A program made the position numbers and the translations under genes. The notes under the pieces were generated by a model. That model did not search any database and was not told the DNA's origin. It saw nothing but the letters and a program-made list of their open reading frames with translations. DNA of 64,000 nt from an uncultured virus (IMG/VR IMGVR_UViG_2541047343_000006) (lineage: Duplodnaviria > Heunggongvirae > Uroviricota > Caudoviricetes). Positions 14,632 through 59,379 of this stretch are shown here, piece after piece. The stretch is from the IMG/VR virus record IMGVR_UViG_2541047343_000006, positions 62,001-126,000 of that record, one strand, 5' to 3'. How positions within the stretch are numbered: the stretch's first letter is position 1; each line of letters begins with the position of its first letter.

Positions 14632-15528
14632 GACCCTAAAAATAAAGAAAAGGGGGCTATTTTTAGACTTTAGTATCAAATGATATTCATTATCATTTTG
14701 TAGTCCTTTTTCTTCTACATCCCAAATTCCATTCAGCCCTTAAAATAAACATTTATACAAAATTACACCACTAATTCAAATTTTTAAACATACACTCATG
14801 AACAATTTCAAACCGTCTCCGAGTATTATAAAACAGTGTTAATTCAATACTTATTTTTCATTAATCATGATAAAAAAATAGCCCCATCTATGTTTTGAAC
14901 CTATGTTATAATGCTAAAGCATGAACATGGGGTGTATGTTTTATTTTAATTCATATGAACTATATAAAATATATATTATATCCTATAAATCAACTATAAT
15001 TGTTATAAAATAATTTTAAATAGTGTATGTTTTAAATTTGAACATCTCAAAATCCTATAGACAAAATTTTAATTCTATCAAGTTATCATTTTTTACTTAA
15101 AATTCAATACAATTCAAACAAAATATACTTCATGCAATTTATTCAAGATTAAAACATATAAATATGTCTATTTTATAGAAAAATATATAGTAATTTATAT
15201 AATTTTTCATATCAATTTTCGTAGACACTATACTCCAGAAAATCAATCTAAAATGATAAGTTTTATAAAATAATTTTCAAACTTAAGTAGTGTATGTATG
15301 GTTTTTATAAAAATTATTAATATTTAATATGCAATTGCATATAAATTATATTAAAATTTATAATTAAATGTAAAACAAATTGTAATATAACTTTCTTTAC
15401 GATTGTAGTATATGTTGTATTACAATTATAGTTTAATAGTATATATAATTTATATTAAATTTGCATTGTAATTATATACCAATTGAAATATAATTAAACT
15501 AAATGAGCTATAAAAGGAGGGGATTTTT

Positions 15529-15762
15529 ATAAAAAAGGATACTTATAATTTACAGATACCTATTCCAATAGAATTAGCTGATAAATTAAAATCACTAGCT
15601 GAAAAGGATGAAAGAAGTTTAAGATTGTATTGTAAAAGAGTACTACAATTACATGCAGATGAAATTTATAATAATAATAATGATATTGACGAAGCTAATA
15701 CTAATAATCAAAATGAAACAGCTAAAAAAAGAAAAGTAGGAGCTTTAAAACCACAAAAATAA
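15529..15762 (+). CDS. Ribbon-helix-helix protein, putative ParR adaptor (non-canonical ATA start)
   Basis: KKDTYNLQIPIPIELADKLKSLAEKDERSLRLYCKRVL; AGGAGG at 15515-15520; in-frame TAA just upstream. Confidence 0.7.
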   Translation: MKKDTYNLQIPIPIELADKLKSLAEKDERSLRLYCKRVLQLHADEIYNNNNDIDEANTNNQNETAKKRKVGALKPQK

Positions 15763-22862: not shown

Positions 22863-22939
22863 AGGGATATAGCTCAGGTGGTTAGAGCATTCGGTTTATA
22901 CCCGAAAGGTCATAGGTTCGACTCCTATTATTCCTACCA
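22863..22939 (+). tRNA. tRNA-Ile(UAU)
   Basis: Complete cloverleaf; anticodon stem TTCGG/CCGAA with loop TT-TAT-AC; encoded CCA. Confidence 0.9.
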
Positions 22940-22944
22940 AATAT

Positions 22945-23035
22945 GGAGAGGTACTCAAGTGGTAAAGAGGATAGTTTGCTAAACTATTAGGTCAATTAAT
23001 TTGATACGAGGGTTCAAATCCCTTCCTCTCTTCCA
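22945..23035 (+). tRNA. tRNA-Ser(GCU)
   Basis: ATAGT/ACTAT stem with loop TT-GCT-AA, long variable arm, TTCAAAT T loop, CCA. Confidence 0.9.
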
Positions 23036-41088: not shown

Positions 41089-41485
41089 GTAATGTCAAAA
41101 TATATATTAATATTATTCTAATCTCTTTGAAGACAATAAATAAAAGGAGAATTAAAGAATCTTCATTGTGGGGGATTTAATTAAAAATAATAAATAATCG
41201 CCAACATTGGCGATTTTGAAAATATAGCATAAATATAATAAGATTAGTTGCTCTCATTTTATTAAAAAATATCTAAGGGTGGTTAATCTTATTATATTTG
41301 TAGAATAGAAAATATTATATACAAATTTATAAAAAACAAATAAAACGATAAAAAACAAAAATAAATAACATATTATTACATATTTTTCCATTTTAATTAT
41401 TTTGAAAAAGTGTTAGAATTTGTATAACAAATAATAATTCCGGAAAGACTTGTTTGAACTTTATAGCAATATTGGAGGTATTATT

Positions 41486-42190
41486 ATGTTTAAAATAATT
41501 ATATGTGAAGATGAAGAAATTCAAAGAAAAATAATGTTTGAATATATAGAGATTTTCTTTAAAAAAGATATTGAATATGAAATTATTTGTTTTAATAATG
41601 GAGAAGAATTAATAAATAATTATATTAAAGCAGATATAATTTTTATGGACATAGGACTTAAAGGTATGAATGGCTTAGAAGCAGCAAAAGAAATAAGAAA
41701 AATAGATAAGGATATTGTTATAATATTTGCAACAGCTTTCGTATCGTATGCTACAGAAGGTTATGATGTTAGAGCTTTTAGCTATTTACTAAAACCTATA
41801 ACATATAATTCTTTTGAAAAGATAATGTCAAAATATTTCATTGAAAAGTCTGAAGAAAAGAAATTAATAGAATTTAAAATAAAAGATGAAACAAAAGTAA
41901 TAAAATTAGAAGAGATAATATGTATAGAGAGTTTAGGTAAATATGTAAAGATTCATACTAAGACTGAAAGTTTTTTTACTGCAATTAAAATTAAAAGGAT
42001 TGAAGAGAAGCTTTCTAGTAAAATATTCTTTCGATGTCATAAAAGTTTTTTAATAAATTTATTAGAAGTTAGAAATTATAATAGGAAAGAAGTCATTTTA
42101 GGTGATAGAAAAATAAAAGCTACAATTTCTTATAGAAAATATAACAATTTTAAAAAGAGTCTCACTTCTTTTCTATGTGATAGATTTTGA
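41486..42190 (+). CDS. LytTR-family response regulator (orphan)
   Basis: Receiver ICEDE, FMDI, GYDV.AFSYLLKP; LytTR FFRCHKSFLIN. Confidence 0.9.
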   Translation: MFKIIICEDEEIQRKIMFEYIEIFFKKDIEYEIICFNNGEELINNYIKADIIFMDIGLKGMNGLEAAKEIRKIDKDIVIIFATAFVSYATEGYDVRAFSYLLKPITYNSFEKIMSKYFIEKSEEKKLIEFKIKDETKVIKLEEIICIESLGKYVKIHTKTESFFTAIKIKRIEEKLSSKIFFRCHKSFLINLLEVRNYNRKEVILGDRKIKATISYRKYNNFKKSLTSFLCDRF

Positions 42191-45738: not shown

Positions 45739-48700
45739 ATGGAAAAGTATCTTTTTAATCAAAAACTATTAAAAGAAAAATATAATATGGAAATAGACCT
45801 AGACTTATATGACTATAAACAAAGACGATTAATTTTAGAAAAATGGAGAGATATAATTGATAATAAATCTATTGATAAATTAAATGAAATTCAACTTAAG
45901 GAAATATTTGTATCGGATATTTTAAACAAAGTTCTTAGGTATAAAAGTCTTACGGACAATATAATGGATTATAATATAAAACCAGAAGAAAAAACTAAGA
46001 TTGATGGAACAAGAGCTGATATTGTACTAGGCTATTTTTCTAATGAAGAAAGTGACTATAGAGTAGCAATAGAATTAAAAAAACCAACAACTAATTTAGA
46101 TGCAAAACAACTAAGAAAAAACAATCATAATACACCAGTAGAACAAGGGTTTTCTTACTTGCCTAAATATGGAAGAAATTGCACATGGCTTATTGTCTCT
46201 AACTTCAAGGAAATTAGATTGTATAATGCTAATGATGCTACAGAGTATGAATTTTTTTCTATTAAAGATATATATGAAAAAGATGATGTATTTAAAAAAT
46301 TTTTATATCTTTTGTCATCTAAATCTTTAATGACCAAACATGGAAAATCTAGGGTTGAAGTACTTTGGGAAGAAAATATAAAGCAAGAGGAAGCCATAGA
46401 AAAAGGTTTTTATGACCTATATAAAAATACTAGATTAAATTTATTTAATGATATACTTTTAAATAATAAAGATATTTTGGATGTAAAAACTTGTTTAACA
46501 AAGACACAAAAAATATTAGATAGAGTTATATTTGTTTGTTTTGCAGAACATAAAGGATTAATACCAGAGAATATCTTTGAAACATGTATTCAAGTAGGGA
46601 AAAAAAGTGTATCTAGGTTTGGAGTCTGGGAACAAGTAAAGGGTCTGTTTGAATCTATAGATTTAGGTAATCAGGAAAAGGGCATAAATCAATTTAATGG
46701 AGGTTTATTTGCAGAAGATTATATTTTGAATAATCTAAAGATACCAAATAAATGTTTCGAGAATTTATACAAGTTATCTTTATATGATTTTAACAGTGAT
46801 TTAAATGAAAATATATTAGGGCATATATTTGAAAAATCTATATCTGACTTAGAAGAACTAAAACTAGAAATAAATCAAGTTAATATTAAGAAAAAAGATA
46901 GTAAGAGAAACAAAGATGGGATATTTTATACTCCCAAATACATAACGAAACATATTGTTAATAACACCATAAGAAGATATTTAGATGAGAAGAAAAAAGA
47001 ATTAGGCGAAGATAAACTTCCAGAACTAAAAGAAGAAGATTATGAAACAGTTGTGGTTGGTAGGAATATACAGCATAAGCGTGTACAAGTTGTAGAATAT
47101 AAAACTGATAAAATTCAAAAATATATAAACTTTTGGAAAAATTATAGAGACGTTGTAAAAAATATAAAAATTTTAGACCCAGCTTGTGGAAGTGGAGCTT
47201 TTTTGAATGAGGCTTTTTCTATGTTAAAAAAAGAAGCTGAATCAGTAAACGAAATACTTCGTGATTTAACCGATGGTGAGATATCATTTTTTGACTTAGA
47301 TGCTAATATATTAAAAAATAATTTATATGGAGTTGATTTGAATGAAGAATCTGTGGAAATAACTAAATTGTCTTTATGGCTTAAAACAGCTAACAAGTAT
47401 AGTTTATTAACTAGCTTAGATAATAATATAAAATGTGGAAATTCTATTATTGATAACAAAGAGGTTGATTGTGCTAAAGCTTTTGATTGGAATGTTGAAT
47501 TTGAAGATGTAATGATGTCAGGAGGGTTTGATATTATAATTGGAAATCCCCCATATGTTTCAACTAAAATGATTCCAGAAAAGCATAGAGAATATTATTG
47601 GAAAAAATATAAAGATTTACTAATTAGCGAAATGGATTTGTATGAGTTGTTTTTATATGAGTTTTGTGAAAATAAATTAAAGCAAGATGGATTTTTGGGA
47701 TTTATAACACCTAATACGTACTTTACAAATAAAAGCTTTGAAAATTTAAGAAAATATTTACTTAAAAATGTATGTGTTGATACTATTTTAGACTTTCCAT
47801 ATAGATTTTTTCCTTTTGAGGATGTAAACAAGGAAACCGCTATAATTATAATTAATAAAAAATTGCCAAATATTAAAAATAATATAAATCTTATAAGTAT
47901 AAATAAAGAAAATATGAAAAAGATTAAGATTTTCAATAGTAATACATACAACTCTGAAAATAAAATTACTATAAAAAGTATTATAAATGATTTGGATAAT
48001 AAAATTGTTATACAAAGCAACCCAATAATATTAAAAATGCTCAAATGTAAGCATAAATTAGGGGATTATTTAAATTTACATAAAGGTTGGATGAGTGTCC
48101 CTAATAAAACAATTTGTGATGGAATTATATATGATAAGAAAATATTAAGTAGTAATGATATAAAAGATAATAACCAATTAAATGGAATTTTAAATAAATG
48201 TTTGGAAGGTAAGGATATACATAGATACTATATTGATAAAGTAGATAAATTTGTAAATATTGAAAACATGGATGACAAAACTATGAGGTGGCACAAATCA
48301 CCTAAGATAATAACACAAAGAATAGTTGGTCAAAATCAAAATAAGATAATTGCAACAGTAGATATTGAAGGTACTATAATATTCCCTAGTGGAAATATCA
48401 TAAATTTAATTAAAGAAGATAATTTGGAAGATATATATTTTTATATAGGAGTTATAAATTCTAGTTTAATAAATTACTTTTATAATAAATTTTATGGAGA
48501 ATCAAATACCAACTTGACAGCAGATGCAGTAAAAAATATACCAATACCAAATTTAAAAAATGTTGATAAATCAATTGTTATAAATAATAGTAAAATACTA
48601 ATAAATAAATATGGTAAATTATACTTATACACTAATAAATTTTTGAAAAATGTATTTAAGATATTGAGCATAGATAATAATCCATCTAATAAATTATATA

Positions 48701-48966
48701 ATTTTTATTTATTAGATTTTGATGAATTTTACAATGAACTTAGCAAAAAAAAGAAGCTTTATTTTAAGAATATTGATGAGTTAGAGGAATATTTTAATAA
48801 GTACAAAGATGCTATTAATAGAATCATATACGATATAAATGTATGCGAAAATACAATCAATACTTTTGTATATGATTTGTACGGTATAACTGAGCTAGAA
48901 AGTAAATCTATAGAAGATATATGTAAGACAACAAAAGACACTGTGGTTACAAGTTTAGCTTATTAA
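45739..48966 (+). CDS. Type IIG restriction-modification enzyme (fused nuclease, N6-MTase and TRD)
   Basis: ADIVL...AIELK nuclease motif; GIFYTP; ILDPACGSGAFL; IIGNPPY; TaqI-like C terminus. Confidence 0.85.
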   Translation: MEKYLFNQKLLKEKYNMEIDLDLYDYKQRRLILEKWRDIIDNKSIDKLNEIQLKEIFVSDILNKVLRYKSLTDNIMDYNIKPEEKTKIDGTRADIVLGYFSNEESDYRVAIELKKPTTNLDAKQLRKNNHNTPVEQGFSYLPKYGRNCTWLIVSNFKEIRLYNANDATEYEFFSIKDIYEKDDVFKKFLYLLSSKSLMTKHGKSRVEVLWEENIKQEEAIEKGFYDLYKNTRLNLFNDILLNNKDILDVKTCLTKTQKILDRVIFVCFAEHKGLIPENIFETCIQVGKKSVSRFGVWEQVKGLFESIDLGNQEKGINQFNGGLFAEDYILNNLKIPNKCFENLYKLSLYDFNSDLNENILGHIFEKSISDLEELKLEINQVNIKKKDSKRNKDGIFYTPKYITKHIVNNTIRRYLDEKKKELGEDKLPELKEEDYETVVVGRNIQHKRVQVVEYKTDKIQKYINFWKNYRDVVKNIKILDPACGSGAFLNEAFSMLKKEAESVNEILRDLTDGEISFFDLDANILKNNLYGVDLNEESVEITKLSLWLKTANKYSLLTSLDNNIKCGNSIIDNKEVDCAKAFDWNVEFEDVMMSGGFDIIIGNPPYVSTKMIPEKHREYYWKKYKDLLISEMDLYELFLYEFCENKLKQDGFLGFITPNTYFTNKSFENLRKYLLKNVCVDTILDFPYRFFPFEDVNKETAIIIINKKLPNIKNNINLISINKENMKKIKIFNSNTYNSENKITIKSIINDLDNKIVIQSNPIILKMLKCKHKLGDYLNLHKGWMSVPNKTICDGIIYDKKILSSNDIKDNNQLNGILNKCLEGKDIHRYYIDKVDKFVNIENMDDKTMRWHKSPKIITQRIVGQNQNKIIATVDIEGTIIFPSGNIINLIKEDNLEDIYFYIGVINSSLINYFYNKFYGESNTNLTADAVKNIPIPNLKNVDKSIVINNSKILINKYGKLYLYTNKFLKNVFKILSIDNNPSNKLYNFYLLDFDEFYNELSKKKKLYFKNIDELEEYFNKYKDAINRIIYDINVCENTINTFVYDLYGITELESKSIEDICKTTKDTVVTSLAY

Positions 48967-49583: not shown

Positions 49584-52500
49584 ATGGTTGAAGAGTTTAA
49601 AATTAAAACCAGTATTGAGCTTGATGACAAAGATGCTAGAGAAAAAATAGAGAAATTAAAAAATAGTGGTCAAGATAAACCTATTAAATTAAATTTGAAA
49701 ATAGGTGAATTAGATAAGTTATCACAACAAGCAGAGCAATTAAAAGGGATATTCAATAAAGCCTTTAAGATTGATAATACTGCTTTGAGCAACTTAAAGC
49801 AAATTGAATCTACTATGAAAGAAATAAATAAACTAAGTAGAAGAAGTCAAGAGAGCTTACTTGGTGGTGGCTCTGGAAACACAGGAAATATAAATAATGA
49901 ACAGCAAGATTTAATAAGACAATATAAAGAAATCTCAAATGTTGTATCTAGACTTCAAAATCAGATTAGAACAGGTCTAGGAGATAGTTCAATTGAAAGA
50001 ACAACAGAACAAATTGAAAGATTAAAAAGACAATTAGATTCAGTGTATGCACAAATGAATTCATCATCTCAAGCTAGAATGGATATGTTTGATGCTTCAA
50101 GAGCAACAAGAGATTTAGCTGATATGAATAGAAATCTTTCAAGAATAGAAGATATGGCAACACAAGCATCTGCTAGGCTTAATGGATTAGGCGATAATAT
50201 AGATACAGATAAAGTAAATAGACTTAGGAATGAGTTACAAGAATTAAAACAGACAGCTAGTAGAAATATAGATTTAAATCTTGATGTAGGTAATATAGTT
50301 AATAGAATACAAGAGATAAATCAAGAAGTTAGAAATCTAGAAAGAGTTGATAGCTTAAGGTCTAATTTCAGCAGAATAGAAGATTCTATTAGACAGGCAT
50401 TTGGGAATGAGAGAGTTGAAGCTTTTAGACGTTCTTTAGAGCAACTTCAAGGTTCGGCAGGAAATCTAAATGGTGATTTTAACAATATATTTGATAGATT
50501 AACAAGAGAAATGAGAGATGCTAGACAAGAAGCTGAAAGATTAAATAATACAGTTTCAAGAGGTGGAGGATTTTTTAATGATTTCTATTCATCTGTAGCA
50601 TCTTATTCTATTGGAGATATGTTGGGCGATGCTTTGACTGATGGAATTAGGTCTATGAAAGATGTTATATTAGAGCTTGATAGCTCTATGACTGACCTTA
50701 AAAAGGTTGCAGAACCAACAGATATTGATAGTACATCTGAGTTAGATAGAATAAGAGAAAAAGCAATACAAACAGCTAAAGATGTAGGAATGAGTGCATC
50801 ACAAGTTCAAGAATCAATAGCATCTTCTTTACAAGCAGGAATTGGAGGCATGCAAGAAAGTATTGCTGCTGCAAGACAATCAATGATACTTGCCAATGTA
50901 GGTGATATGGATGTTGAAGGTGCATCTTCGGCAGTAAACACAATAATCAATGGATTTAGAATAGAACCACTTAAAGAAATGCAAGTACAAGTCGGGAATA
51001 CAACAAAGAAAACAACAGAATTAACTGCTGCAATGGATATGCTAAATTGTTTGGCGTGTTAGATAGAAATATCTAATATTATGAGGGGGCAAAATCGGTG
51101 AAGACTGAGATGTTACCACCGAGGTAAATTAAAGAATTAAAAGACTTTAATCACCGTAACGCATAGGAAATGAACCTATGCTATTTTTATGTTTAAAATA
51201 GTATAGAATATAATTTTCCCACGAGTGTCCTCCATCTTAACAAGTAATCTTGAAGATGAAAATATATGCTGAACTTACATGAATAAGAAATGTAAGAACT
51301 ACAAGATAAAAAGCTTGTAGGATAACAATTTGAAACTATGCAGGGAATAATTATGCAATTGGAACAGCAGGTGTTGCCGAAGCGATTAATTTTAGTCGCC
51401 TTATATAGTAATATATAATGATAAACTCCTTTAACTGCTGGAAACTCCTGTTAGGCTTTTAGTACTAAGTGTAATAATCTAAAAGATAGGGACAATCAGC
51501 AGCCAAGACTCAATAGAGTAAGGTTCAACGACTAGGTTATAAACCGTACATATCAAGCTATTGGATATGGAAATGGGGAGCATCCTTATAGGATGAAGAT
51601 ATAGTCTCGTCTGTATGGAAACATATAGCAGTTCATAAGAGAACGGATTAAGTGTAGCGAACTTAATTGAAGATAAACGGAAACGTGGAGGTAGTGTACT
51701 TCATGAGTATGGTGTCAGTTTAGGTGACACAGTGGGTATGATAACAGCAACAAATGAAGCGATACAAAATCCAGAAAAAGTAGGTAATGGTTTAAAAAGT
51801 GTCGCAATAAATTTAGCAGGTATGAAAGTTTCAGCTGATGATGGTACACTTTCTTTAAATAAAACCGCAAAAGGTTTAAAGGAAATAGCTGGAATAACTA
51901 TTTATAAAAATAAAGATACTGGTGAATTGAAGAATATGGTTCAACTCTTAGATGAGTTGAAAGGCAAATGGGGAGAACTCAGAGAGGATGAACAAAAAGG
52001 ATTAGCTGAAGCAATAGCAGGTAAGCAACAAGCAGCTATATTCCAATCCTTAATGGGTAATTATGAGACTTTTAAAGAAATAAGAAGTGAATTTTCACAA
52101 GGGTTACAATTTGGTTCGGCTGAGGCTGAAAACAAACAATATTTAGATAGTCTTGCAGGGCGTTTAAATGAGTTGAAAACAATATGGGCAGATATATTCC
52201 AAACTGTATTTAATTCAAATACAACATATGGATTTTTAGATGGTTTAATATCTGTATCTAATGGAATAAATAGTGTTATAAAAACATTAGAAAGATTAAA
52301 ATTAACAACACCAGCATTAATAGGAAGTTTTATGACTTTAAAAACGTTATTCTCTGGTATGGGAATGACAAATGGTACTAGAAATGTGGCTAGACTTATA
52401 AATCCTTTAAATATGATAGGAACTCCTATTAAAGCTACAACTACAATACTACAATCATTTAGACATGCAGTAATGGCAGCAAATGTAGCTGGTGCTAATG

Positions 52501-55500
52501 GAGCAAATGTAATTACTAGAGCAGGAACAGGTTTGGGAGCATTAAGACAAAGTTTATCTAGGACTTCTATTGGTATTGGAACATTAAATATAGCGACAAG
52601 TTTGTTAAACGGGGCTATGATAGGTTTGGCTACTTTTGCTATAACTAAAGGTATACAATGGATAGATGATACTATTCACAAGTATGAAAAATTAGCAGAA
52701 AAACAAAAAGAAGTTATTGGAACTACTACAAGCGAGATAAGCTCCTTGCAACAAAAGAAAAAGAGTTTAGAAGGTATATCAGAAGAGTACAATAATTTAG
52801 CTAGTAAGACCGAAAAGACTGCTGATGAAACTGAAAGATTTAGCGAACTTAAACAACAAATTGCAGATATAGCACCAGAATTAGTATTGGGTGTAGATGA
52901 GAATAATGACCCTATTCTAAATATGAGTGGTAACTTAGATGAGGTCATTAATAAATTAAGAAAGGCTATAGAAGAAAAAAATAAACTTTTAAAGTCTCAA
53001 GAAGATGAACTTGCAATAACTACATCAAAGACTGCACCAGATACAAAAAAAGACCTTGATAAAGAAAAGAAAAAACTTGATAAAGTTCTTGAAGATGAGC
53101 ATAATTTATTTAAAAATGCTTTAAGTAAATCTAATTTTAAAGAACAAACAGAAGCATTAAAAAAGGCTTACAATCAACAAGAAACAGATTTTGCAGAACA
53201 TCATCAAAAACTTCTTACTGAATATGAAAAATATAATGAAGAAGAAGAGGTAATGCAGAAAAGGGCGATTAATAGATTAACTAATTCTGATATATCTAAA
53301 ACATATGCTAAACAATCTGAACAAAAGAAAAGTAAAATGAATGAGCTTGTAGCTAATATGAATTGGCATGACTATAGTGTAGGACAACAGAATAGCATTA
53401 TAAGTGCTTTTGATAAAATAAGTGAGTCAATTCCTGTTGAAAAATTAGACCAGTGGAATAAGAAGATAACTGATGCTAATATAAATTATCAGGCATCCGG
53501 TGATATGAATCAATATACCAAAGAATTACAAGGGTTGGCGAATGAACTTCAAAAGCTAAGTGGTGGAAGTATAAGTGCTGATACTTGGCTTATTGGATTA
53601 CAACAAGGTTTTTCTGGATTAGACTTAGCCAGTATGAAATTACATACTTTCTTGAAAAGTTATGGTTCATCTTTAGCTGAACTTGAAAACAAAGATAGTT
53701 TTGCAATAAAGCTTAAAAACCAATTTGATGCATTAAATGATTTTTCTCAAGATTTAGAAGTTAATGGTAAAGTAAATATAAAACTGCTTGAAGATATACA
53801 AAGTGGAGAAGCTGGTCAAGATTTACCACAACAACTAAAAGATATAATAAATGGATTCACATTTGGAGAAGATTCACAAATAGAAGCTCAGGCTCAATTA
53901 GCCCTACAAGTAACAACTACGTTGCAAAACGAAGGTCAATTATCTAATGATGTTGTTAAACAATTAAATGACTTATTTAAGGGTAAATTACAATTAACAG
54001 ATGACATTCTTAAAAATGGACTAAAAATCAGTGACAAGTTACCTGCATTACCAGGAAATATGGTTCAAGCATTAAATGAGCAATTTGCAAATGCTTTTAC
54101 AGGAGACAATGCCCCTGAAATCACTCCTAGTGTCAATGGAGAAAAAGCTAAAAAAGAATTAAAAGAATTAGAAAAATTCAAAAAAGACACTTTTAAATCA
54201 GATAAAATTGTGACTGAAATTAATAATAAAGGACTAGATTTCGCAAAAAAAGACTTGAGTGTATTAAAAGAACAGTTGGATAGATTTAAAAATGAAGATA
54301 CAAAGTTGTCTTTTACTACAGATTGTGCAGATGCTTTTAAAGATGTAAATTCTTTAGAGGAAGCTAGAAAAAAAATATCTGCTCCAATGAGTCTAAAATA
54401 TGATATAGATGTAGATAAAAAAGGATTGACTGAAGCAAAAAAAGTCTATGATATTTTACCTGATAATCTCAAAAAAAAGATAGAAACAGAAGTAATAGGT
54501 ATAGATAAATTAGACACATTACAAAACTTAATAGATAAAGCTCCAAATAAAAAAGAAACTATATTTGAAATAATCAATAAAAATCCAGATAAACTAAATG
54601 AGATAGATGAAATTCTTAATAATGTTCCAAATGATAAAAAGGAAGCTGTTATTGATTTTATAGTAAACAATTTAGACCAACTTGAAAAAGCTAAAAATGT
54701 ACAAGAATTTATAAACAATTTACCTCCAGAAATAAAAAAACAACTTGGAATAGAAGTTGAAGGAGGAGAAAATGCAGAGAAAACTGTTAATACAGTTCAA
54801 AATGCAGATGGAACTAAAGCTGACCTTTTAGTAAATGCAGAAGTAAATGGAGAATCACAAGTAGTTGAATGCATAGAAACATTAGATAAGAATGGGAATA
54901 AAACATACACTCCTAATTTAAATCCTCAAGTTAATAATAGTGAAAAAGTTGTTCAGTGCATGAGAATATTAGATGAATATGGAAATGAATCTTATATTCC
55001 AATTGTAAGTCCTCAAGTTACCAATGAAGAAGGACTTAACAGTACTAAACAAAAAATGGATGAGTTAGATAATAAAACAGTAACTCCAACTGTACAAATA
55101 AAGACAGAAGGAGAAACTGAAGTTGAACAGGCAACCAATTTTATAGAAAATACAAATCCAACTAAGGTTATTGAGTTATCCATAAACAACTCTGGTAAAG
55201 ATGAAATTGACAATACAAAACAAAAGTTAGATGAACTTAATAATGAAAAAGCCACTCCTACTATTGAAGCTACAGGTGCAGAACAAGCATCTGAACAGTT
55301 AAATCAATTATCACAAAAAGCACAAGAAATTGGGCAAGGTAATTATCATATAAATGTTAGTACTTCAACTGAACAAGGGGCTAAGAATATTTCAGGACTT
55401 ATAGCTAGAGTAAAACAATTCTTAGCTTTGAAAGTATCTACACTTGTATTTAGAACTGAAACTGCACAAGCAGCAAAAAATGTATCAGGTTTGTTAGCCA

Positions 55501-57740
55501 AAGTACAAAGTTATGTTAGCCGATATGGTGGAAAAACTATAAAGACTACATTTAGTGCATTAACTGCAACTGCTGCAAAGAACATATCAGGGCTTATTAG
55601 GAAAATAGAGTCATTTAAATCAAACTATGCAGGAAAAACATTCACTACTACATTTGTAACTAATAAAGTAACCAATAGTTCTGGTGGTGGAGGTGGAGGA
55701 AATAGTTCAGATAAGACCAATAAAACTGAACGTACCTCTGTTACTAATGGAACTCCAATTCCAGCTAATCTATCCCAACCTAGAACATCAGAACCAGCAC
55801 CAATAAGTGACGAAACTCCTGTAACAAAACCATCCTTATTCTCAAGAGCAGTATCAAGAGCCACATCAGCTTTTAAAGTAATCAAACCTAAAGTTACAAT
55901 AAACAATGACACAATAGACTCATCTGTAAAATATAGCATAGAATTATTTAAAGAGTTAGAAAATGCTATATCAGCAGTAACAAATGAAATAGCTCTATTA
56001 GACAAAAAAATGGAACATGCTACAGGTGATGAGAAGATTAAATACTTACAGGAGCAAAATAAATTATTTGCTCAACAAAAAGATTTAATAAAACAACAAC
56101 AAGATGGATATAAAGCTGAAAGTAACAGACTTAAAAATAGATTAAAAGAAAAGAAAATGGGCTTTAAGTTTGATGATACTGGAAATCTAACTAACTATGA
56201 AGAAAAGTTAATATCAATAGAAAAAGAATTAGACAAATTAAATTCAAAGTCTGGTGACAAAGAAAATAAAAAAGATGAATCCAGAAAAAAAGAGTTGGAA
56301 GAAACTAAGAAAGTCCTTGAAGAATATATTAAAGTTACATTTACAGAACTGCCTAAATGTGAGCAAGAATGGGAAGAATACAATAATAAAATTAAAGAAC
56401 ACAATGAGGAATTAAGGAAAGCACAAGAAGAAATGTGGAAACTTAATAAGAATTCCACATGGACTTCTATGTACAAAGATGTAGAGCAAGTAAATAATGA
56501 AATAGCAATGATAGATGTATTACTTAAAAATGCTACAGGTGATGAGCAGATAGAGTTGTTAGAAAAGAAAAAAGAGTTAATGGCCAAGAAGGCTAAAGAA
56601 CTATCTGAAACAACAGCATATCTTCAAGAAACACAAAAAGAGCTACAACAAAAGCTACAAGGCTATGGATTTACATTTAGAGATAATGGCGATATAACTA
56701 ACTTCATTCAACATAAAAATCAACTTAAAAAGAACATGACTGATGAAGAATTTAAAAGAATGGAAGATGCAGCAGAGGGATATTTGGATTTATTAATAAA
56801 TAAAATACCTGATGCTAATAAGGAAATTGCTGAATCTAAGAAAGAAATTGAAGCATTAAATAAAGAAATTCAAGATGCTTATAAAGACCAACTCAAAGAA
56901 GCTCAAAGTCTACAAGAGAAAATTAGAGACATGTATAAAAAAGAACTTGAAGAGAGACTTAAAGAAATAGACAAGGAAACTAAAGCTAAAATTGATTCTC
57001 TTAAAAAGCAACAAGATGCTTACAATGATTCAAGAAAAGAAGCCAAATATAAAGATGATTATGAAGAACAACAAGATGTAATAAGTGATTTAGAAAAACA
57101 AATAGCAATAGCTGAAAGAGATAGTTCTTTAAGTGGTCAGAAGAAACTTAAAGATTTACAAAAACAATTAAAAGAAGAACAGAAGAAATTACAGGATTTA
57201 GTACAAGACCATGTAGACGACCAAGTCAATGATATGTATGATAAGGAGTCTGACAGACTACAAGAAGAAGCAGATAAATTAAAAGAAGAGTTAGAGAAAA
57301 AATACTCAGATGAAAATTTAGTTGATTTAATTAATGAAGCAATCAGTTCTGGTAAATTTGTAGGTCTTGATGGAGAAGTTGAGAAACTTCAAGATGCTAT
57401 CATTGAATACATAAACAAATATGAAGATGGCATGTTGGCAATGGGTTCTGTTACTAAGCAAGAATGGCTTGATACACTAAAAGAAGGTAAAGAGACATTA
57501 GAAGATATTAATGACATATTAGATGAATTAGATTTAAGTAAGTTTGCTATGCCTAATTATAATCCTCCTTCAAATTCTCGTTCAAGAAGTGCATTTCCAA
57601 CATCTTCAGTTAATTTTAATTCACCATTCTTTGTTGTTCAAGGAAATGTAACTAAGGATACTATGAAAGACTTGGAAAAATTTGGTAGAGATTTAGAGAA
57701 TAGAGTATATAGAAAAATAGTAGAAAATATTAAATCATAG
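49584..57740 (+). CDS. Tape measure protein, spliced: join(49584..51043,51333..51386,51680..57740), 2524 aa
   Basis: Removing both introns gives an in-frame MDMLNYAGNNYAIGTAGVAEAMKRGGSVLHEYGVSLGDTVGMITATNEAIQNPEKVGNGLKS, a TP901-type TMP core. Confidence 0.85.
51044..51332 (+). ncRNA. Group I intron 1 (289 nt, no ORF)
   Basis: P1 with U-G at the splice site; P4 TCGGT/ACCGA; P7 GCATA(51161)/TATGC(51265); terminal G. Confidence 0.85.
51387..51679 (+). ncRNA. Group I intron 2 (293 nt, no ORF)
   Basis: P AACTGCTGGAAAC, Q AATCAGCAG, R GTTCAACGACTA, S AAGATATAGTC; P1 GCGAU/GUCGC; terminal G. Confidence 0.9.
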
Positions 57741-57839
57741 ATTATTTATATAGACAAAGGATTTTAAGTAGAAATCCAGATTTCTCTAATAAAATCCAGA
57801 TTTTATTTCAAAAAATAATATGTATATGGTATAATAGTA

Positions 57840-57983
57840 ATATAAATGATATAAATTTATATCATAAAGACATAAAAAAAGAGACTACAACTATTTGTGC
57901 TAGGGTGTCTCTTCATAAATAAGCGAAGTGTTAATTAGAGGAAGAATCACCTGAATTGCCGTTCGGGTGATTCTTAATTTTTT
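57840..57983 (+). ncRNA. Putative type I antitoxin RNA 1
   Basis: TGnTATAAT promoter, then AAGAATCACCTGAA/TTCGGGTGATTCTT terminator, antisense to the toxin 3' end. Confidence 0.6.
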
Positions 57984-58110
57984 GCAACGTTTTCTTAAAC
58001 TCATCTATTTCTTTAAAGAGTCTATTTAAATTCTGAACCAACTTAATCAAACTAATAATTATAGTTGTAAGAAATGTTATTATCGTTAACAAACAAATTA
58101 GATATTTCAT
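57931..58110 (-). CDS. Type I toxin-like peptide, 59 aa (not in the ORF track)
   Basis: MKYLICLLTIITFLTTIIISLIKLVQNLNRLFKEIDEFKKTLQKIKNHPNGNSGDSSSN; GGAGGTG RBS. Confidence 0.7.
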   Translation of the reverse strand: MKYLICLLTIITFLTTIIISLIKLVQNLNRLFKEIDEFKKTLQKIKNHPNGNSGDSSSN

Positions 58111-58371
58111 AATATCATATCACCTCCCCTCTTGATTTGACATGGGAAGGCTTATGTATATGAAGATTCACCCTAATAGTTTTTTTTATGTAGTCTCTAA
58201 AAATATTATACCATAAATTACCAATATGTTAAATTTAATATTATATTGTCTACAATTGTAAAAGAATATTGTGTTCTAAGAAGTTATTCTATTAATAATA
58301 TAGCTTTTTTATTTTTCAATGAAGATAATGACAACATTGACTATTTTGATAATATTGGAGTATAATAGTAA

Positions 58372-58525
58372 TATAAATGATATAAATTTATATCATAGGG
58401 ACATAAAAAAGAGACTACAAACTATTTGCTGTAGGGTGTAGTTCTTAAAGTTAACAATAAAAAGAATAGATTTATGTATTACTTTCAGAATCACTAGACC
58501 CGCCAGTCTGGTGATTCTTTAGTTT
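58372..58525 (+). ncRNA. Putative type I antitoxin RNA 2
   Basis: TTGATA...TATAAT promoter; 5' part nearly identical to RNA 1; AGAATCACTAGAC/GTCTGGTGATTCT terminator. Confidence 0.6.
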
Positions 58526-58633
58526 CCTAATAGATGCTTTCAAGTTTAAGATTGCATCTATTAGCTTTGTCAAATGATTGATTATTCTTGTAATCATAAT
58601 TATCATTATTAAAAACAAAACTAAGTACTCCAT
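58472..58633 (-). CDS. Type I toxin-like peptide, 53 aa (not in the ORF track)
   Basis: MEYLVLFLIMIIMITRIINHLTKLIDAILNLKASIRKLKNHQTGGSSDSESNT; GGGGGTG RBS. Confidence 0.7.
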   Translation of the reverse strand: MEYLVLFLIMIIMITRIINHLTKLIDAILNLKASIRKLKNHQTGGSSDSESNT

Positions 58634-58892
58634 AGTCTCACCCCCTTTCTTACTGGGGATTTTAACTAAAGAGCCATCACCCTAATAGTCTAAACTGTAG
58701 TCTCTAAAAATATTATACCATATTTTTCCATAATGTTAAATTTAATATTATATTGACGACAGGAGTAGAATAAAGATATAATACAGGTAACAGAAAATTT
58801 AAAAATTTTACACAAGAATTACTACTTATCTATGCCACCTTAAACAAGTGGCTTTTTTCATACTCTGGTATCTATTTAAGGAGGTGTTACAA

Positions 58893-59048
58893 ATGATAAA
58901 TAATATAGAAGATTGTAAGCTTCTTATTGAGACAGAAATAAGAATGAAAGGTATAGATGAAAAAGAACTAATATCTCAAAACGAAATTCTGAAAGACCTA
59001 AATATTAATGAAAAAGACCTTGAAGATATTGAAGTGAATTTTGAATAA
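58893..59048 (+). CDS. Small acidic hypothetical protein
   Basis: MINNIEDC after AGGAGG. Confidence 0.55.
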   Translation: MINNIEDCKLLIETEIRMKGIDEKELISQNEILKDLNINEKDLEDIEVNFE

Positions 59049-59379
59049 TGAAATGATTTATAATATACCTATTTAAAACATGTATTAATTGATATCAGTA
59101 ATAGTGATTTTTTATTTATTGAATCTGTTTTACAAAAAACGTATTTATGATATAATAAAAGTAAGGAATTTAATCTACTTAATACAAAGAGTGATTGTTT
59201 CCTTAAAGTTAATTAAAAAATCAATTTATCTTTTGAAACCACTCTTATTGGCGTTTGAGTGTTTTTTGCTTTATCATATATGTAACAAGCTATTAAACTT
59301 GTTGCAATATTTAGATTAATAAAATATTTTAGCTCATCTTAATTGATGGGCTTTTCTAATACAAAGAAGGTGATAAAAT

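Follow-up and report, generated by a model that had tools for sequence, protein, structure and literature searches.

Group I introns in phage tail genes have been described in several systems. In prophages of the Bacillus cereus group, the introns TMP-IVS1, TMP-IVS2 and TMP-IVS3 interrupt the tape-measure gene at three sites (Tourasse and Kolsto 2008, PMC2504315). Exon skipping has been reported for the three-intron orf142 (tail tube) gene of phage Twort and for the DNA polymerase gene of SIOphi (PMC11878797), a study that also calls the Rfam group I model RF00028 incomplete. Group A IStrons, for example CdISt1, are associated with a TTGAT, ATTAT or TTTAT target, end in TCAG and include IS200/IS605 ORFs (PMC4227781). 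For the phiCD211-like phages of C. difficile, the GenBank entry of phiCD211 (LN681537.2) marks one tape-measure intron as Intron_gpI and leaves a copy of the family treated below as that of intron 1 unannotated. No title or abstract on introns in phiCD211-like tape-measure genes was found in the literature, and passages from some of the papers that contain both phiCD211 and the word 'intron', among them PMC9784644, concern other introns.

The stretch of DNA analysed here (the window, 64,000 nucleotides) covers positions 62001-126000 of a virus record with 134,221 bases, the source of which is a phiCD211-like C. difficile phage present as an extrachromosomal prophage. The 1301 bases around the finding have a perfect match (100% identity) in a plasmid record of C. 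difficile, NZ_CP132148 (130.8 kb), and phages LIBA6276 and LIBA2945 share 97% identity with 78% of them. NZ_CP132148 has been reported as SC084-01-01_phi3, the 130,799-base element of strain SC084-01-01, which is an active, inducible phage (PMC10993401); the window's phage is likely to be active as well. The word 'intron' is absent from the main text of that paper, the supplement of which may mention the split gene. According to a passage of PMC9784644, lytic propagation of the phiCD211-like group was not yet shown. Phage phiCD5763, to which the intron-1-carrying LIBA-2945 phage is identical, has been found to propagate, with big particles making up 0.1% of the mixture (PMC5786514, the supplement of which may likewise mention the split gene).

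The flanks of the split region encode terminase, portal and tail proteins. Between 39305 and 45128, the structural module is interrupted by three antirepressor genes, a LytTR response regulator (41450-42190) and a repressor. An Eco57I/MmeI-like restriction-modification fusion of 1075 aa (45739-48966) lies within the tail module, ahead of the tape-measure gene, and approximately 1.6 kb devoid of ORFs of at least 80 aa (57741-59379), in which Rfam gave no match, separates this gene from the next tail gene. The window also contains a tRNA with a TAT anticodon (22863-22939, called as Ile), which would read AUA, and a tRNA-Ser(GCT) at 22945-23035; tRNAs with a UAU anticodon are uncommon among bacteria.

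The tape-measure gene spans 49584-57740 and comprises three exons and two introns (Table 1). It encodes a long tail-module protein with the PF10145 PhageMin_Tail domain characteristic of tape measure proteins. Exon 1 matches the tape measure family phrog_13137 (E 6e-220) and positions 1-76 of the PF10145 profile, and exon 3, in which no further intron was found (51680-57740), matches phrog_10871, phrog_4211 and profile positions 102-201. The domain, cut at profile positions 76/102 in the window, is whole in the intron-free allele of a related locus, L012 (E 3e-24).

Table 1. Exons, introns and intron elements of the split tape-measure gene, in positions of the window
Feature	Position	Strand	Description
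Exon 1	49584..51043	+	486 codons + 2 nt, N-terminal part of PF10145; ends ATGCT
Intron 1	51044..51332	+	ORF-less group I, 289 nt, terminal G
Intron 1 IGS	51050-51057	+	
Intron 1 P3	51085-51091/51226-51232	+	
Intron 1 P	51091-51102	+	
Intron 1 Q	51117-51125	+	
Intron 1 R	51156-51165	+	
Intron 1 P7.1	51166-51170/51215-51219	+	
Intron 1 S	51259-51270	+	
Intron 1 3' hairpins	51274-51296 and 51299-51320	+	
Micro-exon (exon 2)	51333..51386	+	54 nt, phase 2 to phase 2
Intron 2	51387..51679	+	ORF-less group I, 293 nt, IA2-like, terminal G
Intron 2 P	51433-51444	+	
Intron 2 Q	51494-51503	+	
Intron 2 R	51525-51534	+	
Intron 2 P7.1	51535-51545	+	
Intron 2 P7.2	51549-51569	+	
Intron 2 S	51596-51606	+	
Exon 3	51680..57740	+	Remaining PF10145 + long rod; one open frame

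The initial annotation, made from the sequence alone, had placed intron 1 after ATGCT, with a U-G pair of P1 at the junction and a final G51332, and intron 2 after GCGAT, with its own P1, P/Q/R/S elements and a final G51679, around a 54 nt micro-exon encoding NYAGNNYAIGTAGVAEA. Recomputation of the coordinates, translation of the exon and folding of the introns reproduced this arrangement, the exon contributing split codons in addition to NYAGNNYAIGTAGVAEA and each P1 helix forming with U(-1) paired to G. The intron 1 junction is fixed by the natural allele L012, which lacks both introns and in which the exons are joined at exactly the predicted bases; the alleles L001, L011 and L013 lack only intron 2, again with exact junctions. 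Because these four alleles carry exact empty junctions, the split layout is not a product of chance. The joined frames of relatives are open for 2526-2725 aa (4/4 tested). Removal of both introns from the window's gene gives a protein of 2524 aa, a message from which neither intron or intron 2 alone is removed stops at 492 aa (the unspliced stop lying at 51062), and one from which intron 1 alone is removed stops at 511 aa. The single 2524-aa frame and the unspliced stop put forward initially hold on recomputation, and the claim that the full-length protein needs both splicing events is supported by these premature stops.

Intron 2 matches RF00028 with 103 bits (E 1e-25) at 51378-51628, the only match to this model above the cut-off in the phage's own genome, and it combines this match with the P1 U-G pair, terminal G and P, Q, R and S elements of group I introns. 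Introns of class IA2 possess two hairpins, P7.1 and P7.2, between P7 and P3, and two hairpins are likewise found between these helices in the fold of 51535-51575. An IStron origin was considered for intron 2 and rejected, as it is without the IStron target, the TCAG end or IS200/IS605 ORFs (PMC4227781). Separately, a terminase-like gene (L182, G006:C1:118438-118807) is cut after TTGAT by an IA2-type intron approximately 70% like intron 2; this insert fits a group A IStron, and the contig ends there.

The Infernal check against group I models that the initial annotation had proposed succeeded for intron 2 and failed for intron 1, on which RF00028 scores 12.1 bits (E 0.115), below the gathering score, and Rfam at E values up to 10 gives four chance matches, none of them to a group I model. 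The miss is a gap in the model rather than the lack of a defining feature. Intron 1 contains the core helices P3, P4, P6, P7 and P8 with the P3/P7 pseudoknot, and its fold has a z of -6.1. A core pattern search of IMG/VR gathered at least 120 loci of the same family, with approximately 170 estimated; 83 had a short core, and 48 were kept at < 85% identity for a covariation alignment. Across these 48 sequences the helices are 98.2% paired, with two-sided changes in 20 of 33 pairs, a result reached by 0/500 shuffles and to be set against 34-49% pairing in slid controls. The search pattern fixed P4 and the 5' strand of P7, the invariance of which is therefore no test of pairing; P3, P6, P7.1 and P8, which it left free, all covary, with two-sided changes in 6/7 pairs of P3, 5/5 of P7.1 and 4/4 of P8. 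A model built from the alignment has a single strong match in the phage's own genome, namely intron 1. These comparisons support the assignment of intron 1 as a group I intron of a family missed by Rfam. Classes IA1 and IA3 have one extended stem with a nested hairpin between P7 and P3, and the covariation of P7.1 suggests that intron 1 is class IA-like.

P7 changes on both strands between the two families, from GCAUA/UAUGC in intron 1 to GACUA/UAGUC in intron 2. The suggestion that these differing cores reflect independent invasions is borne out, in that the introns belong to separate families and alleles occur with none, with intron 1 only or with both, intron 2 alone at its site being found in 0/10 loci of the window's lineage (the window, L001, L007 and L010-L016). 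The longest stop-free stretches on either strand are 45 aa in intron 1 and 66 aa in intron 2, so neither contains an endonuclease gene, as had also been proposed. In other genes, L179 (G007:C1:100392-100568, minus strand) has an ORF-less intron that belongs to the broad intron-1 type and shows a third variant of P7; the host gene looks like an anaerobic ribonucleotide reductase when the translation is judged by eye. An intron with a decayed HNH-like ORF was found in L180 and L181 (W04 15410-15585 and W05 89268-89443), in what looks by eye like a class II ribonucleotide reductase gene.

None of the RNA data found came from the phage of the window itself. Seven runs were compared, among which X1 was informative, X2-X4 represented other alleles or parts (including an intron-1-family copy at the phiCD211 site in X3 and an exon piece in X4), and X7, X9 and X13 had 0-2 reads. 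A join of exon 2 to exon 3 in X2 was not counted, as it may be DNA of an allele without intron 2. X1, a set of RNA-seq contigs, matches the related locus L016 (8/8 contigs at >= 99%, with no listed differences). Two introns of the intron-1 family, 78% (site 1) and 89% (third intron) identical to intron 1 of the window, are removed from RNA in this relative. At the first site, an unspliced contig from exon 1 into intron 1 (depth 23) is accompanied by one (depth 17.7) that opens with the final 16 bases of exon 1 and passes from these directly into exon 2 at the predicted position. At the other, a 58-nt contig skips the intron exactly, at a depth of 5.1 against 9.5-12.9 for the retained form; the short sides of these two junction contigs are 16 and 28 bases, below the 31-base bridging threshold. 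The intron 2 of L016, 98% identical to that of the window, was seen in retained form only, in a 479-nt contig continuous across the border of exon 2 and intron 2, and no spliced intron 2 junction was seen in this one informative run, the contigs of which drop rare forms and carry no strand.

The distribution of introns across phiCD211-like phages was defined by spliced alignment of 46 loci (11 duplicates left out), with a T before and a G at the end of each insert being required; 2/80 calls were dropped as artefacts before clustering (L018 k357 and L055 k370). By exon similarity, 29 of the loci form a C. difficile-type clade, which includes some genomes represented in two collections and some loci that are cut short. 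In these 29 loci, 12 intron sites are found between reference codons 110 and 305, a region of approximately 200 codons, with genes harbouring no (1 locus), one (9), two (9), three (7), four (1) or five (2) introns and exons as short as 27 nt. Introns of L037-L040, L050 and L051 and that at k289 are outside this count, their boundaries being uncertain and their folds without the U-G pair. At least one intron is present in 18/19 C. difficile-type loci found by protein search, and the remaining approximately 2000 codons contain no intron in the five alleles followed to the gene end.

Four ORF-less intron families of 257-315 nt were distinguished. That of intron 1 occurs at four sites, always after GCT and before an A-rich start (4/4), and that of intron 2 at three, always after GCGAT (3/3); the other two families follow GGT. 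Between sites, copies often share 88-94% identity, with the guide kept and the P1 loop/P10 strand varying by site, and the two main exon lineages are approximately 52% identical. In a P10 specificity matrix of the four intron-1 sites, the cognate pairing was best or tied in 3/4, the energies being too small to carry weight. In each of the loci L041 and L042, the tape-measure gene contains five introns (k110-k305) belonging to three families, with exons of 27 and 57 nt. Distant relatives (L043 and L054, both at k289, as well as L037-L040 and L050) have ORF-bearing inserts of 1.1-1.3 kb in the same domain, with LAGLIDADG_3 found in L054 and a CapR-domain, nuclease-like ORF in L037.

The boundaries, group I folds, empty alleles and, in a relative, the removal of two intron-1-family introns from RNA having been observed, the window almost certainly contains two unrelated ORF-less group I introns within the PF10145 domain, both of which are likely to self-splice to give the 2524-aa protein that sets tail length. 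According to group I chemistry (PMC3984707), the guide of each intron would pair with the last exon bases in P1, an outside guanosine would cut the 5' site, and P10 would bring in the next exon, the terminal G marking the 3' site. By analogy, self-splicing of both introns would be protein-free and guanosine-initiated, and the stops at 492 or 511 aa would take partly spliced messages out of productive use. The introns are likely to be tolerated passengers without a regulatory job. At the 12 sites, members of the four families are found exclusively after motifs that base-pair with the guide of the family concerned. First colonisation of a site could have proceeded through reverse splicing, or through DNA-level insertion filtered by selection, and copies at different sites are likely to have been kept alike by recombination among them. 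Such recombination is evident from the intron sequences: with groups named by site before the tree was built, the intron-1 tree rejects a single clade for sites k156 (AU p 0.008) and k288 (p 0.02), and 498/1326 pairs of informative columns are incompatible, fewer among neighbours than in 5000/5000 shuffles.

A stronger version of the RNA route is that excised ORF-less introns reverse-splice into guide-matching sites of the tape-measure mRNA and are fixed via host or trans-acting reverse transcription and recombination. The four gene-less families would then hop without an endonuclease and subsequently retune a few P10 bases, leaving a live record of transposition; both the process and this record are considered rather unlikely. 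The consistency of the preceding motifs (GCT with the A-rich start 4/4, GCGAT 3/3), which precede 0-1.2% of the T positions in the domain by a post hoc comparison, is consistent with such transposition, but selection alone would produce the same match, as an intron without P1 would kill an essential gene. Similarly, introns that share 88-94% identity occupy sites that are not homologous and differ in codon phase, in carrier alleles approximately 50-52% identical in exon DNA, yet recombination among copies explains this identity without recent jumps. The one exception among the carriers is k212 of L016 (89%), which differs from its empty kin on both flanks, as would fit co-conversion or prior divergence. 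Empty alleles of the same lineage and with the same flanks exist for at least nine sites (k110, 156, 161, 170, 174, 206, 217, 286 and 288), so exon co-conversion is not needed. The phage's own genome has no match to any of the five Pfam families RVT_1, HNH, HNH_3, GIY-YIG and LAGLIDADG_3, in line with spread without an endonuclease; by the same search, no reverse transcriptase of the phage itself was found, which weighs against the RNA route. In addition, of the six GCGAT motifs in the tape-measure gene of the window, five have no intron, and the ORF-bearing introns of distant relatives in the same domain (LAGLIDADG_3, k289, L054) mean that the sites may be old homing sites. A passage of PMC3984707 describes such a pattern as the best circumstantial sign of reverse splicing, direct evidence being lacking. 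Reverse splicing as the general explanation is kept low because of selection on P1, recombination and the possible age of the sites.

A regulatory function would take the form of regulated skipping of the micro-exon, giving a working tape-measure protein 18 aa shorter, or of intron 2 splicing acting as a switch for tail production, and is very improbable. The initial annotation was right that skipping would stay in frame, CT and G forming a Leu codon in a product of 2506 aa. Pairing of the P10 strand of intron 1 with the first bases of exon 3 is also possible, in a register shifted by one base, and skipping has precedents: it occurs in orf142 of Twort and affects 47% of the transcripts of the SIOphi polymerase gene (PMC11878797). 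As a working product, the shorter isoform envisaged by the initial annotation has no support, as the micro-exon, with its conserved NYAGNN motif, is present at its full length of 18 residues, without any exon deletion, in 26/26 aligned homologues, and X1 showed no junction of exon 1 with exon 3, a weak point since contigs drop rare forms and X1 is the one informative run. Because of this conservation, skipping probably yields waste through deletion of a conserved segment. The unspliced intron 2 of X1 could be taken as the mark of a switch, but the number (0 to 5) and position of introns differ from one relative to the next, and elsewhere some micro-exons have lengths not divisible by three and set the sites apart in phase, as fits passengers and not a conserved switch.

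A naturally split or decayed gene with inert inserts, either a pseudogene or the source of two proteins (492 and approximately 2002 aa), is scarcely credible. Although two ORFs are annotated in databases and GTG 51732 is closely preceded by a Shine-Dalgarno-like AGGTGA, this element is also found in 3/3 alleles lacking only intron 2 and is thus a by-product of the coding sequence, conserved PF10145 residues would be lost, and the exact empty alleles, covariation and spliced junctions favour introns. An internal start at GTG 51732 was rejected as an intron-linked feature for the same reason.

With two self-splicing passenger introns as the preferred reading, the tape-measure genes of these common phages of C. 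difficile are wrongly annotated, as two to six ORFs, and Rfam misses an intron family with an estimated 170 or so matching stretches in IMG/VR. Near-identical gene-less introns at different sites, together with empty alleles, bear on how group I introns reach new sites. Since occupied and empty alleles occur in culturable C. difficile lysogens, the group I RNA route, if it operates here, could be put to a natural test.

Compared with known systems, the two-intron layout alone is ordinary and has published precedents, multi-intron tape-measure genes and exon skipping both being already known. Like CdISt1, intron 2 is an IA2-type ribozyme found in C. difficile and inserted after a fixed pentanucleotide with GAT at its end, but it follows GCGAT, ends in AACG, has no IS ORF and is present as a single copy in the phage (PMC4227781). 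In Twort orf142, which is a tail gene, and in the SIOphi polymerase gene, several group I introns likewise interrupt a single phage gene, with skipping possible; skipping was measured there, whereas in the window's phage it would be in frame only and none was seen (PMC11878797). The tape-measure gene of phiCD211 itself (LN681537.2) also contains two introns, which flank a 33-nt exon, and the first is 93% identical to intron 1; by contrast, its sites are k206 and k217, its allele is divergent, with 52% exon identity, and its second intron is of another family. The TMP-IVS introns share with those of the phiCD211-like phages the type of host gene, several sites per gene, a mostly HEG-less state, IA1 and IA2 classes, early intron stop codons, related introns at different sites (IVS1 and IVS2, 80% identical) and different introns at one site (PMC2504315). 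The P1 of IVS1 and IVS2 has diverged, whereas the phiCD211-like copies are 88-94% identical with the guide kept and only the P1 loop/P10 strand changed. Less ordinary is the density of the phiCD211-like introns, with 12 sites in approximately 200 codons, against three in the B. cereus group, and up to five introns per gene.
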